Of a stretch of DNA of 5,534 nucleotides, positions 34 through 5,534 are shown piece by piece (positions within the stretch are counted from its first letter, which is position 1; each line of letters opens with the position of its first letter). Below the pieces are notes generated by a model. It did not search any database and had not been told where the DNA came from. It was given only the letters and a program-made list of their open reading frames with translations. The stretch is from the sequence record OR492646; one strand, given 5' to 3'. Source of the stretch: Escherichia phage G4. The translations under genes were made by a program, and so were the position numbers.

Positions 34-58
34 GCCTCCCATCAAACGGAGGCTTTTC

Positions 59-1723
59 ATGTTTAAAACTCATTCTGATTACTTCAACAAACCAAACATC
101 GACGCAATCAAACCGCTCGTCGAAACTGCTGGTATGTCTATTCTTGCTCAATCTCCGGGTCTCCGTATCTGGAAACAGTGCAATACTCGCATCAAACTAC
201 TGGAAGAAATCCTCGCCCACTACACTAACGGCATCCGCCGTGATGATAATGGTGACTTCTGGATGAATCCAAACTCTCAACTCGCAACCACTATTGCCTA
301 TCGTGCTCACCACAAAGGCCACAACCCTAAATTCAAACAATACCCAGAGTCATTTACCCTGGACGATATTATTACTGGCAAGCCAATACCTCAAACTGCC
401 CTTGGTGAATTACAACTCTCCGATGAAATCGGTGAAGATTACCGTCTCACAGTCCTCTCCATAATCGAAGAATTGCAAGAATGCTACGACGTGCTCGGAC
501 AACTTGATATTAATAACACTATAGACCACAAACCCCTCGGTAATGACCACTGGAACCTCCTCTATGAAAAACCCGTATACAAACATTGGTATCAACTCGT
601 TTCAAAACGACCCCTTAAAGATATCCGCGCCGATTACAACTATGCAAAAGCGAAGGGTATTAAAGATGAATGCTCAAAAATCTTGGAGGAGTCAACTATG
701 AAGTCTCGACGTGGCTTTACCGTTCAAAGATTAATGAATGCTATGCGTACTGCCCACACTCAGGGCTGGTATGTTGTATTCGATACTCTTACTCTAGCCG
801 ATGACCGCTTAAAGGATTTCTATGATAACCCCAATGCTCTTCGTGACTACTTCCGTGATATTGGTCGTATGGTGCTTACTGCCGAAGGTCGCTCGGTGCA
901 TGACTCATCTGCCGACTGCTATCAGTATTTTTGTGTGCCAGAGTATGGTACACAGCACGGTCGTCTACATTTCCACGCAGTGCATCTTATGCGCACACTT
1001 CCTTTGGGTTCTCTGGACCCTAACTTCGGTAAGCTGGTACGCACTAATCGGCAAATAAATAGCTTGCAAAACACGTGGCCTTATGGTTACTCTATGCCCA
1101 TCGCAGTCCGGTACTCCCAAGACGCATTCTCCCGCGCTGGCTGGCTCTGGCCTGTTGACACAAAGGGTGAACCCCTTAAAGCTACCTCGTATATGGCCGT
1201 AGGCTTCTACGTTGCTAAATACGTTAACAAAAAATCAGATATTGACATGGCCGCAAAAGGCCTAGGGAATAAACAATGGAACAATTCGCTCAAAACCAAG
1301 ATCAACTTCATACCCAAGAAAGTGTTCAGAATCCGAATGTCCCGCAATTTCGGAATGAAACTACTATCAATGGCTCACCTGTCAGCGGAAACCCTGATGG
1401 AACTAACCCAAGTGGGTTACGACGTGACCCCGTTCAACAACATCTTGAAGCAGAACGCCAAGAAAGAGCTCAAATCGAGGCTGGCAAAGAAATCTGTCGC
1501 CGACGTTTTGGAGGCGCAACCTGTGACGACCAATCTGCTAAAATTCATGCGCAATTTGACCCGAACAATCGGAGAGTCCAACCTACAGAGTTTTATCGCT
1601 TCAATGACTACGAAATTAACAAGTACGGATATTTCTGATGAAACCAAAAACTACGTTGCTGCTGAAGGAATTGCTGTTGCTAACCTACGAATTAAATCGA
1701 AGTGGACTGCTGGTGGAAAATGA
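59..1723 (+). CDS. A: Replication initiation protein A (HUH rolling-circle endonuclease), 554 aa
   Basis: The ORF track gives 32..1723. The in-frame ATG at 59 is preceded by a strong Shine-Dalgarno GGAGG (48-52) at 6-nt spacing, whereas the ATG at 32 has no RBS and overlaps the putative -10. The translation contains the HUH motif (GRLHFHAVH) and a long C-terminal region nearly identical to phiX174 A as I recall it (e.g. [43 protein letters not shown]). It stops with TGA at 1721-1723, overlapping the C start ATG (ATGA). Confidence 0.93.
500..529 (+). other. Origin of viral (+) strand rolling-circle replication; 30-nt A-protein recognition and nick site CAACTTG|ATATTAATAACACTATAGACCAC
   Basis: This is an exact match to the conserved 30-nt phiX174-type origin as I recall it, embedded in gene A (it encodes [10 protein letters not shown]). 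Protein A nicks between G506 and A507. Confidence 0.85.
698..1723 (+). CDS. A*: A* protein: in-frame internal restart within gene A (C-terminal 341 aa of A)
   Basis: The internal ATG at 698 is in the A frame and preceded by a strong SD GGAGGA (685-690) at 7-nt spacing. It begins MKSRRGF, the same position as the phiX174 A* start. Whether this phage expresses A* cannot be determined from sequence. Confidence 0.5.
1276..1638 (+). CDS. B: Internal scaffolding protein B, 120 aa, encoded in an alternate frame entirely within gene A
   Basis: The ORF track entry 1276..1638 starts with ATG. Its acidic, Q/E-rich protein ends ...[17 protein letters not shown]...[16 protein letters not shown], closely matching phiX174 B (...[10 protein letters not shown]...EFYRF...GYF) at the same length. 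Confidence 0.9.
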
Positions 1724-1808
1724 GGAAATTCAATCTCAACTTAAAAAACTCGAGGTCGTCTTACTTCGCAACCTTTCGCCATTATCTCAACGTTCTGGCA
1801 AAGACTGA
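1638..1808 (+). CDS. K: Protein K, 56 aa (small leucine-rich protein), overlapping the 3' end of A and the 5' end of C
   Basis: Not in the ORF track (below its length cutoff). Manual translation from the ATG at 1638-1640, which overlaps the B stop as TGATG, gives [56 protein letters not shown], then TGA at 1806-1808. This matches phiX174 K (...[21 protein letters not shown]...LSPS...) in sequence, length and position. Confidence 0.85.
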
Positions 1809-1974
1809 CGCCCTTGACGAGGAAAAATACCTAAACATGCTAGGTGCTCTCCTCAAAGACTGGTTCCGGTACGAAGAACATTTCGTACATGGTAAACAAT
1901 CAATGCTTGACATACTGAAAGAACGTGGCCTATTATCCACAACGTCAACTGACACAAACCGCAAAGGAAACTGA
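1720..1974 (+). CDS. C: Protein C (DNA maturation; switches replication to single-strand synthesis and packaging), 84 aa
   Basis: The ATG at 1720-1722 overlaps the A stop. The ORF track extends it to a GTG at 1702, which I judge an artefact. The translation [21 protein letters not shown]...[13 protein letters not shown]...[13 protein letters not shown]...[10 protein letters not shown] closely matches phiX174 C. Confidence 0.9.
1907..1936 (+). promoter_or_regulatory. Candidate sigma70 promoter for the late genes (pD-like): -35 TTGACA at 1907-1912, 18-nt spacer, -10 TATTAT at 1931-1936
   Basis: Seen in sequence: a perfect -35 hexamer and a 5/6 -10 hexamer. It lies near the 3' end of gene C, about 40 nt upstream of the D start, where the phiX174 D promoter is located. 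Confidence 0.5.
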
Positions 1975-1975
1975 A

Positions 1976-2434
1976 ATGTCTAAATCAAACGAATCTGCTG
2001 TAGCCTTTCAAACTGCTATTGCCTCTATCAAACTCATTCAAGCCTCTTCTGTTCTCGACTTGACAGAGGACGACTTTGACTTCTTAACTCGCGACCGTGT
2101 CTGGATTGCTACCGACCGCTCACGCGCTCGCCGTGCTATCGAGGCCTGCGTATATGGAACACTGGACTTTGTCGGGTATCCTCGCTTTCCTGCTCCTGTT
2201 GAGTTTATTGCTGCCGTCATTGCTTATTATGTTCATCCCGTTAACATCCAAACCGCCTGCCTCATCATGGAAGGTGCTGAGTTTACCGAAAACATCGTCA
2301 ATGGTGTTGAACGCCCAGTTAAAGCCTCTGAACTGTTCGCCTTCACTCTTCTCGTTCGCGCCGGCAACAAAGACCTTATCGGTCATGCCGAAACAAACAT
2401 CCGTGAACAATTACGTGCTCAAGGAGTTATGTAA
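1976..2434 (+). CDS. D: External scaffolding protein D, 152 aa
   Basis: ATG at 1976 with an AGGA SD about 9 nt upstream. The ORF track's upstream extension to 1925 lies inside C. From IASIKLIQAS onward the protein is nearly identical to phiX174 D (FPAPVEFIAAVIAYYVHPVNIQTACLIMEGAEFTEN...) at the same length. The TAA stop at 2432-2434 overlaps the J start (TAATG). Confidence 0.95.
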   Translation: MSKSNESAVAFQTAIASIKLIQASSVLDLTEDDFDFLTRDRVWIATDRSRARRAIEACVYGTLDFVGYPRFPAPVEFIAAVIAYYVHPVNIQTACLIMEGAEFTENIVNGVERPVKASELFAFTLLVRAGNKDLIGHAETNIREQLRAQGVM

Positions 2435-2465
2435 TGAAAAAATCAATTCGCCGCTCTGGTGGTAA
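2154..2465 (+). CDS. E: Lysis protein E (MraY inhibitor type), 103 aa, overprinted in the +1 frame of D and running into J
   Basis: ATG at 2154 with a GAGG about 10 nt upstream. The ORF track's GTG at 2097 is probably too early. The N-terminal transmembrane segment WTL...LAFLLLLSLLLPSLLIMFIP matches the conserved phiX174 E TM domain, including the Pro in LLLPSLL. The stop is TAA at 2463-2465. Confidence 0.85.
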   Translation: MEHWTLSGILAFLLLLSLLLPSLLIMFIPLTSKPPASSWKVLSLPKTSSMVLNAQLKPLNCSPSLFSFAPATKTLSVMPKQTSVNNYVLKELCNEKINSPLWW

Positions 2466-2511
2466 ATCTAAAGGTGCTCGCCTCTGGTATGTAGGCGGAA
2501 CACAATACTAA
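2434..2511 (+). CDS. J: Small basic DNA-binding/packaging protein J, 25 aa (MKKSIRRSGGKSKGARLWYVGGTQY)
   Basis: ATG at 2434-2436 overlaps the D stop, with an AAGGAG SD at 2420-2425. The highly basic peptide ends ARLWYVGG, matching the conserved J C-terminus. Its 25-aa length is G4-like (phiX174 J is 38 aa). Stop is TAA at 2509-2511. Confidence 0.9.
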   Translation: MKKSIRRSGGKSKGARLWYVGGTQY

Positions 2512-2556: not shown

Positions 2557-3840
2557 ATGTCTAACGTTCAAACTTCTGCGGACCGTGTACCTCATGACTT
2601 ATCTCACCTTGTCTTTGAGGCTGGTAAAATCGGTCGCCTCAAAACTATCTCTTGGACGCCTGTTGTTGCTGGTGACTCTTTCGAGTGTGATATGGTTGGC
2701 GCTATTCGCCTTTCCCCTCTTCGTCGCGGCCTCGCTGTTGACTCACGTGTTGATATCTTTTCTTTCTACATTCCACACCGTCATATCTACGGTCAGCAAT
2801 GGATTAATTTTATGAAGGATGGCGTTAATGCCTCTCCTCTTCTTCCTGTTACATGTTCCTCTGGTTGGGGCTCTGCTGCTTATCTTGGTACCATTCCGTC
2901 CTCTAACCTTAAGGTGCCTAAATTCTTACATCAGGGCTATCTGAATATTTATAACAACTACTTCAAACCGCCTTGGTCTGATGACTTAACTTACGCCAAC
3001 CCATCCAATATGCCTGCTGAGGATTATAAATGGGGCGTACGTGTCGCTAACCTGAAATCTATCTGGACCGCGCCACTTCCACCGGATACCCGTACATCTG
3101 AAAACATGACTACTGGTACATCCACTATTGACATTATGGGCCTCCAAGCCGCATATGCTAAATTACATACGGAACAGGAACGTGATTACTTCATGACCCG
3201 TTACCGTGACATTATGAAAGAGTTCGGCGGTTATACATCCTATGATGGTGATAATCGTCCTCTTCTGCTCATGCGCTCTGAGTTTTGGGCCTCTGGCTAT
3301 GACGTAGACGGTACCGACCAATCTTCTCTCGGTCAATTCTCTGGACGCGTCCAGCAAACCTTTAATCATAAAGTGCCACGCTTTTATGTTCCTGAACATG
3401 GCGTAATTATGACTCTGGCGGTTACTCGCTTCCCGCCGACTCATGAAATGGAAATGCACTATTTTGTAGGCAAAGAAAACTTAACCTATACCGATATTGC
3501 TTGTGACCCTGCACTGATGGCTAACCTGCCACCGCGTGAAGTGTCCTTAAAAGAATTCTTCCACTCCTCACCTGATTCTGCTAAATTCAAAATCGCTGAG
3601 GGCCAATGGTATCGCACACAGCCTGACCGTGTCGCTTTCCCATATAATGCTCTGGATGGATTCCCGTTCTACTCTGCTCTCCCGTCCACGGAACTAAAAG
3701 ACCGTGTACTGGTTAACACTGATAACTACGATGAAATCTTCCAGTCTATGCAGCTTGCACACTGGAATATGCAAACTAAATTTAATATTAACGTTTATCG
3801 TCACATGCCTACGACTCGTGACTCAATCATGACCTCGTAA
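2557..3840 (+). CDS. F: Major capsid protein F, 427 aa
   Basis: ATG at 2557 with an AAGGA SD 9 nt upstream. The ORF track's start at 2518 lies inside the palindrome. The translation MSNVQTSADRVPHDLSHL...RLSPLRRGLA...QGYLNIYNNYF...IDIMGLQAAYA...GQFSGRVQQT...KFKIAEGQWYR...PTTRDSIMTS is strongly similar over its full length to phiX174 F at the same 427-aa length. Confidence 0.97.
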   Translation: MSNVQTSADRVPHDLSHLVFEAGKIGRLKTISWTPVVAGDSFECDMVGAIRLSPLRRGLAVDSRVDIFSFYIPHRHIYGQQWINFMKDGVNASPLLPVTCSSGWGSAAYLGTIPSSNLKVPKFLHQGYLNIYNNYFKPPWSDDLTYANPSNMPAEDYKWGVRVANLKSIWTAPLPPDTRTSENMTTGTSTIDIMGLQAAYAKLHTEQERDYFMTRYRDIMKEFGGYTSYDGDNRPLLLMRSEFWASGYDVDGTDQSSLGQFSGRVQQTFNHKVPRFYVPEHGVIMTLAVTRFPPTHEMEMHYFVGKENLTYTDIACDPALMANLPPREVSLKEFFHSSPDSAKFKIAEGQWYRTQPDRVAFPYNALDGFPFYSALPSTELKDRVLVNTDNYDEIFQSMQLAHWNMQTKFNINVYRHMPTTRDSIMTS

Positions 3841-3849
3841 CGCAACAAA

Positions 3850-3955
3850 GGCCGCCCCTCTACTGGTCAGATACCTGCCCAATGTGGGGCGGACCGTGCC
3901 TACGGAGATACTTGAGTCTCCGATACATGGACGGCGAAAGCCGCCGTCCCTACTG
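3850..3955 (+). other. F-G intergenic structured region: candidate G4-type complementary (-) strand origin with three stem-loops and a CTG primase start site
   Basis: Seen in sequence: hairpin 3852-3858/3886-3892 (CCGCCCC/GGGGCGG); hairpin 3903-3908/3917-3922 (CGGAGA/TCTCCG, 8-nt loop); hairpin 3929-3936/3942-3949 (GGACGGCG/CGCCGTCC, 5-nt loop); then CTG at 3953-3955. The reverse complement of 3929-3954 reads AGTAGGGACGGCGGCTTTCGCCGTCC, which matches my recollection of the 5' end of the G4 primer RNA made by DnaG primase. Confidence 0.6.
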
Positions 3956-3976
3956 CAAAGCCAAAAGGACTAACAT

Positions 3977-4510
3977 ATGTTCCAGAAATTCATTTCTAAG
4001 CACAATGCTCCAATTAACTCTACTCAGCTTGCTGCCACTAAAACTCCGGCTGTCACGGCACCTGTTTTATCTGTGCCTGACTTAAGCCGCTCTACTATTA
4101 AAATCAATGCAACAACCACAGCCGTTACAACTCATTCAGGCTTGTGCCATGTTGTTCGCATTGATGAAACAAGCCCAACAAATCATCACGCTCTATCTAT
4201 TGCAGGTTCGTTATCAAACGTTCCTGCTGATATGATTGCTTTTGCCATTCGTTTTGAGGTCGCTGATGGCGTCGTTCCTACTGCCGTCCCGGCCTTATAC
4301 GACGTCTATCCAATCGAAACCTTCAATAACGGCAAAGCAATCTCATTTAAAGATGCTGTTACTATCGATTCACATCCCCGCACCGTCGGTAACGACGTTT
4401 ATGCGGGAATCATGCTCTGGTCTAACGCTTGGATCGCCTCTACTATCTCTGGCGTCCTCTCTGTTAATCAGGTAAACCGTGAAGCAACTGTTCTTCAACC
4501 TCTGAAATAA
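3977..4510 (+). CDS. G: Major spike protein G, 177 aa
   Basis: ATG at 3977 with an AAGGA SD 7 nt upstream. The translation starts [10 protein letters not shown] and ends [14 protein letters not shown], with an internal YDVYP...[26 protein letters not shown], matching phiX174 G (MFQTFISRHN...YDVYP...[26 protein letters not shown]...LQPLK). Confidence 0.95.
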
Positions 4511-4520
4511 GGATTATCCT

Positions 4521-5534
4521 ATGTTTGACGCTATTGCTGGCGGTATCGCCTCCGCACTTGCTGGAGGCCTTACAGGTAAATTATTTGGCGGCGGTCAGTC
4601 CGCCAACTCTACTGGAATTCAAGGCAACGTCCTTGCTTCCGATAACAATGTTGTAGGTGCTAATGATGCCGGTATTAAATCTGCTATTCAGGGCTCTACT
4701 GTTCCTAACTCTCAGGAAGCTGCCCCCTCCGCTATCTCTGGCATCCTTGCCGACTCTGGCAAGCATGCGCTCTCGTCTCTTACCGATGCTGGTGCAAATA
4801 AACTCATGGAGGCTGTCGGCCTTTCTAAGTCTGCCTCTGACAAGGGCAAGGACACAAAAGACTACCTCGCCGCCGCATTCCCCGATCTCAACCCATGGGA
4901 ACGTGCCGGCGCTGGCGCTTCTGGTGCAGGCATGCAAGACGCTGGCTTCCAAAATCAGAAAGAGCTAACCAAAATGCAGCTTGACAACCAAAAGGAAATC
5001 GTTAAGATGCAAAACGAAACCCAGAAGGAAATCGCTGGGCTTCAATCTGTTACATCACGCGAAAATACCAAGGATACTGTATATGCTCAAAATGAAATGC
5101 TCGCGTATAACCAAAAAGAGTCTATGTCACGCGTTGGCGCTATTCTCGAAAACACAAGCCTCACCAAACAACAACAAACTTCTGAAATTATGCGGCAAAT
5201 GCTTACTCAAGCTCAAACCGCAGGTCAATATTTTACGAATGAGCAAATCCAAGCGCTTACAAGAAAAGTTGGTGCTGATATTGATGCTGTTCGCGCTAAC
5301 ACTGCACGCACCCATGTAGAAATCGACCGCTCAAAACAGGAGGTTCAAAACTCCCGTTACGCTTCATCACAGGTAGGCAAAACCGCTAAGGACGTGTCCA
5401 ATGCAATTACTGATACAGCTGGTTCTATTGTTGATTATTTTCGTGGTGTTGATCAAAAAGTGGCAGACGTTTACAACAACTATTTCAAAGATGGTAAATC
5501 GAAAGGAATAGAATCCAATCACCGCTCCAAATAA
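4521..5534 (+). CDS. H: DNA pilot / minor spike protein H, 337 aa
   Basis: ATG at 4521 with an AAGGA SD 7 nt upstream. It has a Gly-rich N-terminus ([16 protein letters not shown]...KLFGGGQ) and a conserved central region (KDYLAAAFP...[27 protein letters not shown]...[14 protein letters not shown]...[20 protein letters not shown]) closely matching phiX174 H. The TAA stop is the last codon of the window. Confidence 0.95.

Follow-up and report, generated by a model that had tools for sequence, protein, structure and literature searches.

The window, by which is meant the whole stretch of DNA analysed here, is by its sequence a complete 5534-nt genome of a G4-group microvirus (Microviridae, Bullavirinae, Gequatrovirus). 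When searched against the phage collection by megablast, it was covered to 100% at 96.2% identity by coliphage ID11 (AY751298) and by NC13. Whole-genome global alignment gave identities of 96.17% to ID11, 95.63% to G4, 95.06% to WA6, and 92.4% to ID52. The G4 record and the window share their point of linearisation, and none of the phage records searched is identical to the window. The region considered here is the A/C boundary, which a further small gene, K, spans. The genes and features of this region are the following:

59..1723, plus strand: gene A (Pfam Phage_GPA, E=3.5e-60; coordinates as in the ID11 and G4 annotation)
1276..1638, plus strand: gene B, internal scaffolding protein, nested in A (Pfam Phage_B, E=3.1e-49; 1276..1638 also in the annotation of relatives)
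1627..1629, plus strand: weak Shine-Dalgarno-like GGA, ending 8 nt before the ATG of K (anti-SD pairing)
1636..1640, plus strand: TGATG, formed by the B stop (1636-1638) and the K start (1638-1640), with base 1638 in both
1638..1808, plus strand: gene K, 56 codons and a TGA stop (ORF listing and translation, Pfam, PHROG, annotation of relatives)
1720..1723, plus strand: ATGA, formed by the C start (1720-1722) and the TGA stop of A and A* (1721-1723) (frame audit)
1720..1974, plus strand: gene C, DNA maturation (Pfam Phage_C, E=3.2e-38; annotated at 1720..1974 in ID11, G4, and WA6)

Gene K starts with the ATG at 1638-1640, ends with the TGA at 1806-1808, and has no internal stop codon, as is found alike in the sequence, the ORF list, the translation, and a per-base frame audit. 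The same four sources bear out, base for base, an earlier note on this DNA that had placed a leucine-rich ORF of 56 codons in the third frame at 1638-1808. Leucine accounts for 16 of the 56 residues (29%) of the product. The first 82 nt of K are shared with the 3' end of gene A, where they overlap its C-terminal 27 codons, and the last 89 nt are shared with the 5' end of gene C, where they overlap its first 29 codons. When the frames are expressed as start position modulo 3, A lies in frame 2, B and C in frame 1, and K in frame 0. As A, K, and C thus occupy three different forward frames, bases 1720-1723 are read in all three, the ATGA sitting within the K codons AAT (1719-1721) and GAG (1722-1724). 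Base 1638 is triply covered as well, belonging to the stop of B, the start of K, and, as the middle base, the A codon GAT (1637-1639). Both junctions had been described beforehand, the first as a K ATG overlapping the B stop in the TGATG at 1636-1640 and the second as a crossing of the A stop and C start by K in which 1720-1723 are used in three forward frames, and both are seen in the per-base frame audit. The audit additionally shows a triply covered base at 2434, which belongs to the stop of D, the start of J, and a codon of E. Gene A has a further in-frame ATG upstream, at 32, which is also open, and the start of A* is placed at 698 by homology.

The identity of the product is established by several kinds of comparison. 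Residues 2-55 match positions 2-55 of the 56 in the Pfam model Protein_K (PF12283) at 53.5 bits (E=2.7e-14), the gathering score of this family being 25 bits, and a full-length match is found to PHROG 1713 (E=3.2e-29). Moreover, K is annotated at exactly 1638..1808 in five G4-group genomes, namely ID11, G4 (V00657), ID52, ID2, and WA6. In BLASTP, the identity of the product is 91% with G4 K and, over an ungapped alignment, 55% with phiX174 K (E=2e-16). Similarity to microvirus K proteins, which had been proposed as the test of the gene, is therefore found both with the Pfam model and with the K proteins of phiX174 and G4. The original match to phiX174 K stands, with the refinement that the precise orthologue is G4 K. 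A search of a large protein database returned six clusters, all of them G4-group K proteins carrying PF12283, of which the named ones are called gpK or protein K; this search gave no evidence of K outside Bullavirinae. NCBIfam, when searched with K, returned no family. The product thus belongs to microvirus protein K by a score above the gathering level, by the position of its gene on the B stop and in the third frame across A and C, and by its presence in a Bullavirinae genome. With a probability of about 97%, the segment 1638-1808 is read here as encoding protein K of a G4-group microvirus, a leucine-rich accessory protein of 56 residues whose gene is overprinted on the terminal part of A and the initial part of C, with low, B-coupled translation and a helical hairpin fold as its predicted properties.

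The length of the open frame is in itself a poor guide to such a gene. To recode the region, A (1640-1717) and C (1723-1811) were refilled with synonymous codons sampled at the frequencies of this genome, with the shared junction bases fixed, in 20,000 trials. Of these recodings, 5.0% preserved a K frame free of stops over 56 codons or more; taken by half, the part overlapping A was open in 55% and the part overlapping C in 9%. Furthermore, the window contains other unannotated ATG-initiated ORFs of at least 50 aa, seven on the plus strand and six on the minus strand. Length was consequently set aside as insufficient evidence for K, since one recoding in twenty stays open and seven comparable unannotated ORFs exist on the plus strand, and the case for K rests on homology and conservation. 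The same figures, including the 55% for the half overlapping A, are points in favour of a rival explanation, according to which the K frame is an untranslated accidental ORF, open because the amino acids of A and C together with T-rich codon usage avoid third-frame stops, and not a functional gene here.

Conservation of the frame speaks against such an accident. An intact frame of 53-56 codons, starting at TGATG on the B stop, is present in 14 of 14 relatives, which is unexpected at 5% per independent lineage. These relatives comprise nine GenBank genomes (ID11, G4, ID52, ID2, phiX174, WA6, Lilleput, phiK, and PJNS002) and five IMG/VR loci recovered through the K alignment; they span three genera, with nucleotide identity in the K region going down to about 74% for the phiX174-group records. 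A stop codon in the K frame of close relatives, which the earlier note had named as evidence that would count against the gene, occurs in none of the 14. The motif GGATAYTTCTGATG at the B/K junction is kept in the window and in all nine GenBank relatives, including phiX174 and phiK. Two of the IMG/VR loci (L013 and L014) have the same TGATG start context and intact frames, with YDLNR in place of YELNR. The ATGA is found at offset 82 of K in ID11, G4, ID52, ID2, WA6, phiX174, Lilleput, and PJNS002, as well as in the other three IMG/VR loci (L010-L012), and among the nine GenBank relatives it is absent from phiK. Judged from these genomes, the triple-frame stretch is a trait of the phiX174 and G4 groups and not of all Bullavirinae. 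In addition, the product passes a curated Pfam model at twice its cut-off, which is likewise not what an accidental frame would lead one to expect. Homology and the 14 intact frames together place K well beyond chance. The analysis shows that K exists, is orthologous with the annotated K of G4 and of phiX174, and has had its frame kept open across the subfamily.

The two halves of K differ in how they evolve, as is evident when nine colinear genomes, namely the window with eight relatives, are compared in all 36 pairs. Over the bases shared by A and K, the mean identity across these pairs is 0.89 for the N-terminal half of K versus 0.83 for the C-terminus of A. For the same bases, the comparison of the window with ID2 gives 0.92 for the N-terminal half of K and 0.74 for the C-terminus of A. 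Nine differences from ID2 are located in this overlap (1659-1685); five of the nine are silent in K whereas eight change A, and most of the nine lie at third positions of K codons, corresponding to first positions in A. Against phiX174 the order is reversed, with 0.70 for the C-terminus of A and 0.65 for the N-terminal half of K. In the K/C overlap, variable columns fall on K codon positions 1, 2, and 3 in a ratio of 17/10/5, position 1 of K being position 3 of C. Here C is the better conserved of the two in 33 of the 36 pairs, and K in none. In comparisons inside the G4 group, the N-terminal half of K equals or exceeds in conservation the A C-terminus that shares its bases. On these substitution patterns, the leucine-rich N-terminal helix behaves as a constrained coding sequence, and the C-terminal half looks largely unconstrained, following what C permits. 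For an accidental ORF, the faster evolution of the C-terminal half relative to the C frame in those 33 pairs is a point in favour, whereas the preference of G4-group substitutions in the A/K overlap for K-silent positions is a point against. In a published codon-usage analysis (PMC8227390), K is classed among the genes made de novo by overprinting, and the extension at the C-terminus of A is given the same origin; the combination of a constrained N-terminal half with a loose C-terminal half agrees with this view.

Experimental evidence on K comes from phiX174. The K peptide LLLCDLSPSTNDSVKN of this phage has been found by mass spectrometry after cell-free expression (PMC6883844), and all 11 phiX174 phage proteins have been quantified in infected cells (PMC8125068). 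According to one preprint (bioRxiv 10.1101/2020.03.05.979765, citing Tessman 1980 and Gillam 1985), it was comparative genomics that brought phiX174 K to light, and the protein modulates burst size. In a complete deep mutagenesis of phiX174, nonsense and missense changes in K left fitness undiminished in the assay used (bioRxiv 10.64898/2026.07.25.740675). By its orthology with phiX174 K, the gene is probably expressed in the present phage as well. K is reported in the phiX174 literature as non-essential with an effect on burst size, and this may hold for the present K too. An accidental, untranslated frame gains from the nonsense mutants that show no fitness defect in phiX174 (bioRxiv 10.64898/2026.07.25.740675), but loses from the observation of the phiX174 K peptide by mass spectrometry (PMC6883844; PMC8125068). 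When this is added to the kept frames, the Pfam score, and the K-silent substitutions, such an accident is very improbable.

Still less credible is the proposal that conservation stems mainly from nucleic-acid signals, such as the B/K and A/C junctions or a transcription attenuator of the kind of the Rho-dependent site near the B end in phiX174, with the K polypeptide as a functionless by-product: the reported lowering of transcript levels over K by the phiX174 Rho-dependent terminator (T_C / RUT-3; bioRxiv 10.1101/2020.03.05.979765), the invariance of TGATG and, except in phiK, of ATGA, and the dispensability of K in laboratory assays (bioRxiv 10.64898/2026.07.25.740675) would all suit it, but signals of this type would require neither a frame that stays open at constant length nor a conserved N-terminal sequence rich in leucine, a stretch of 14 residues is kept at the protein level between the G4-type and phiX174 K, and mutation of K is reported to affect burst size (Gillam 1985, as cited in bioRxiv 10.1101/2020.03.05.979765 and 10.64898/2026.07.25.740675). 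The preferred reading accordingly remains that of a genuine protein K gene, for which a route of translation and a structure can be proposed.

The predicted anti-SD pairing of the K start, at -3.3 kcal/mol, is the weakest among the 11 gene starts of the genome, the others ranging from -4.9 to -9.5 kcal/mol. Because of this weakest pairing, and because the K ATG shares a base with the B stop, translation of K coupled to that of B is proposed. Ribosomes terminating on B at TGATG would reinitiate at the K ATG, and this would be the main source of K, whose translation from the pA and pB transcripts would stay low. TGATG is thus the likely, predicted site of termination-reinitiation coupling between B and K. 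The motif is also constrained by the protein sequences of B and A, and its conservation does not prove a translational role. A promoter and terminator scan of 1000-2200 revealed nothing specific to K. One strong promoter-like site appeared in the scanned interval at 1907-1936, downstream of K.

An AlphaFold2 model of K, built on a shallow alignment of seven closely related sequences, comprises a helix at residues 3-22, a loop SGLLVE, a second helix at 29-46, and a disordered tail, with a mean pLDDT of 85.6. The product may accordingly be pictured as a two-helix hairpin, in which the conserved N-terminal leucine-rich helix would be the functional part. A fold search of the model against BFVD gave no match at E <= 0.001 and is uninformative for a two-helix hairpin, and a profile search of solved structures with K gave a chance-level match only (E=0.38). 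The hypothesis that K is an integral membrane protein is sometimes raised. A classical transmembrane segment was taken as one of about 19 residues with a mean Kyte-Doolittle hydropathy of at least about 1.6. The highest 19-residue mean in K is 0.86, and the protein was rejected as a classical transmembrane protein. Over 11 residues the hydropathy mean reaches 1.62, at residues 5-15, and the leucine-rich helix is broken by K and E residues. The protein probably acts via protein-protein or peripheral membrane contacts, and not as a classical transmembrane protein.

The K allele of this isolate has some features of its own. It differs from the K of ID11 and WA6 by three residues, Q10K, S49L, and A53S. 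There are three nucleotide differences from WA6 within the gene, all of which change K. Residue Q10 is invariant in every other K examined, including those of phiX174 and phiK. The exact DNA allele was found in no phage record searched (best 98.2%), and the best cluster in the protein database is 93% identical. Two of the three K changes also alter the overlapping protein, giving A536E in A and H22Y in C. That one of these changes is adaptive, be it in K itself or in the C-terminus of A (A536E) and in C (H22Y) that overlap it, is unlikely; an adaptive K allele, if true, could give a handle on the function of K. Neutral or hitch-hiking substitutions are probably the better account of Q10K, S49L, and A53S, since a change that is silent in C will in most cases be bound to alter K, and the C-terminal half looks nearly unconstrained.

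Small overlapping genes such as K are easily lost in annotation. The earlier note had predicted that a length-filtered ORF caller would miss K, and this is what happens: an ORF lister run at its default 60-aa threshold omits K, and the recent GenBank records of Lilleput (MK629525) and PJNS002 (PQ479935) annotate six genes, leaving out K, with an intact 54-codon K ORF in each. The lesson is one of quality control, as ORF callers with a length threshold or a ban on overlaps drop K and also B, E, J, and A*. The finding of K matters only in this respect, and the window adds no new leverage on the function of K. Gene K and the triple-frame bases at A/K/C have been textbook features of phiX174 and G4 since these were first sequenced. 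The gene and its triple-frame bases are therefore already known, are annotated in the closest relatives, and represent no new biology.

The present K is best compared with the known systems at increasing distance. In the G4 group, the K of G4 (V00657.1, CDS 1638..1808, CAA24014.1) and those of ID11, WA6, NC19, and ID52 have the same coordinates and 56 aa, with the same TGATG start on the B stop and the same ATGA at the A/C junction at offset 82. In phiX174, K (NC_001422.1, CDS 51..221, NP_040706.1) has the same length and the same three-gene overlap with TGATG and ATGA, and it shares a conserved core of 17 residues with the K of the window in the ungapped alignment at 55% identity. However, phiX174 is placed in another genus, Sinsheimervirus, identity falls to only about 40% in the C-terminal half of K, and the expression and burst-size data belong to phiX174 K and not to a G4-type phage. 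In phiK, of the alpha3 group, K (NC_001730.1, CDS 2157..2318) lies directly after B with the same GGATATTTCTGATG start context, has 53 aa, and possesses a leucine-rich N-terminus (TLLMQEL.LL). BLASTP between phiK K and the K of the window gave no detectable similarity, and homology here rests on position and the short N-terminal motif only. As annotated, A of phiK ends at 2242 and C starts at 2269, hence there is no ATGA junction and no triple-frame stretch.

Within the same genomes, the other overprinted gene of Bullavirinae is E. Lysis depends on this gene, whose product carries a clear transmembrane helix and acts on a known target; its frame lies entirely inside D. In the window it lies at 2154..2465 and gives rise to the three-frame point at base 2434. 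Like K, E is a short accessory gene that originated de novo from a different reading frame within older genes (PMC8227390). Unlike E, K is non-essential and spans two genes.

A per-base audit of reading frames across the window revealed a second position that is covered by three frames. Base 1638, at the junction between the stop of gene B and the start of gene K, is missing from the list of the earlier note, which had named nucleotides 1720-1723 at the A/C junction as the triple-frame bases. The three codons sharing this base are as follows.

1636-1638, +, stop codon TGA of B, with 1638 as its last base
1637-1639, +, codon GAT of A, with 1638 as its middle base
1638-1640, +, start codon ATG of K, with 1638 as its first base

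A further base of this kind is found at the D/E/J junction, 2432-2465, where the stop of D and the start of J are fused as TAATG and base 2434 is covered by the frames of D, E, and J.

2154..2465, +, gene E (103 aa), extending beyond the D stop and 32 nt inside J
2434..2511, +, gene J, with its start overlapping the D stop

The same extension of E into J is annotated in WA6 and ID52, whereas it is absent from the annotation of G4 and ID11, in which E stops upstream of J and 43 additional bases are present near 2420 relative to the window.

Regarding the signals around these genes, the frame of A is already open from an ATG at 32, nine codons 5' of the ATG at 59, which is the annotated A start in ID11, G4, and WA6; a strong Shine-Dalgarno pairing (-9.5 kcal/mol) is located ahead of position 59. 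Additionally, a near-consensus sigma-70 promoter-like site lies within gene C, with the start of D 40 nt downstream.

1907-1936, +, promoter-like site: TTGACA, 18-nt spacer, TATTAT (11/12 matches)

In phiX174 and G4, the promoter for D occupies this location. As this site is downstream of K, expression of K has to rely on transcripts that begin upstream.

The + strand of the window also carries seven ATG-initiated ORFs without annotation (52-101 aa), all in alternative frames of known genes, which served in the analysis solely as a chance baseline.

543-701, +, unannotated ORF
822-1058, +, unannotated ORF
2594-2815, +, unannotated ORF
3882-4085, +, unannotated ORF
4266-4475, +, unannotated ORF
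4663-4968, +, unannotated ORF
5083-5319, +, unannotated ORF

For conserved cryptic ORFs of comparable kind in phiX174, function was not detectable (PMC6883844).

None of the phage records is identical to the window genome. Its closest relative across the whole length is ID11 (96.17%), but the nearest reference varies along the sequence, being WA6 for 1276-1974 and the D/E-J junction, with the blocks 2949-3248 and 4448-4747 closer to ID11 and G4; the first ~600 nt diverge by about 8-9% from each of the four references. The genome thus appears mosaic, a pattern that is consistent with recombination between G4-group phages.

Intact but unannotated 54-codon K ORFs with a TGATG start are present in Lilleput (MK629525, 1550-1714) and PJNS002 (PQ479935, 2649-2813), whose GenBank records hold six annotated CDS each, with B, E, J, and A* likewise missing. 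In phiK (NC_001730.1, alpha3 group), A is annotated as ending at 2242 and C as starting at 2269, without overlap, so that the triple-frame junction would be absent from the alpha3 group. Similarity between the K proteins of phiK and G4-type phages was not detectable by BLASTP, whereas the phiK gene, at 2157-2318, shares the position and start context of G4-type K.
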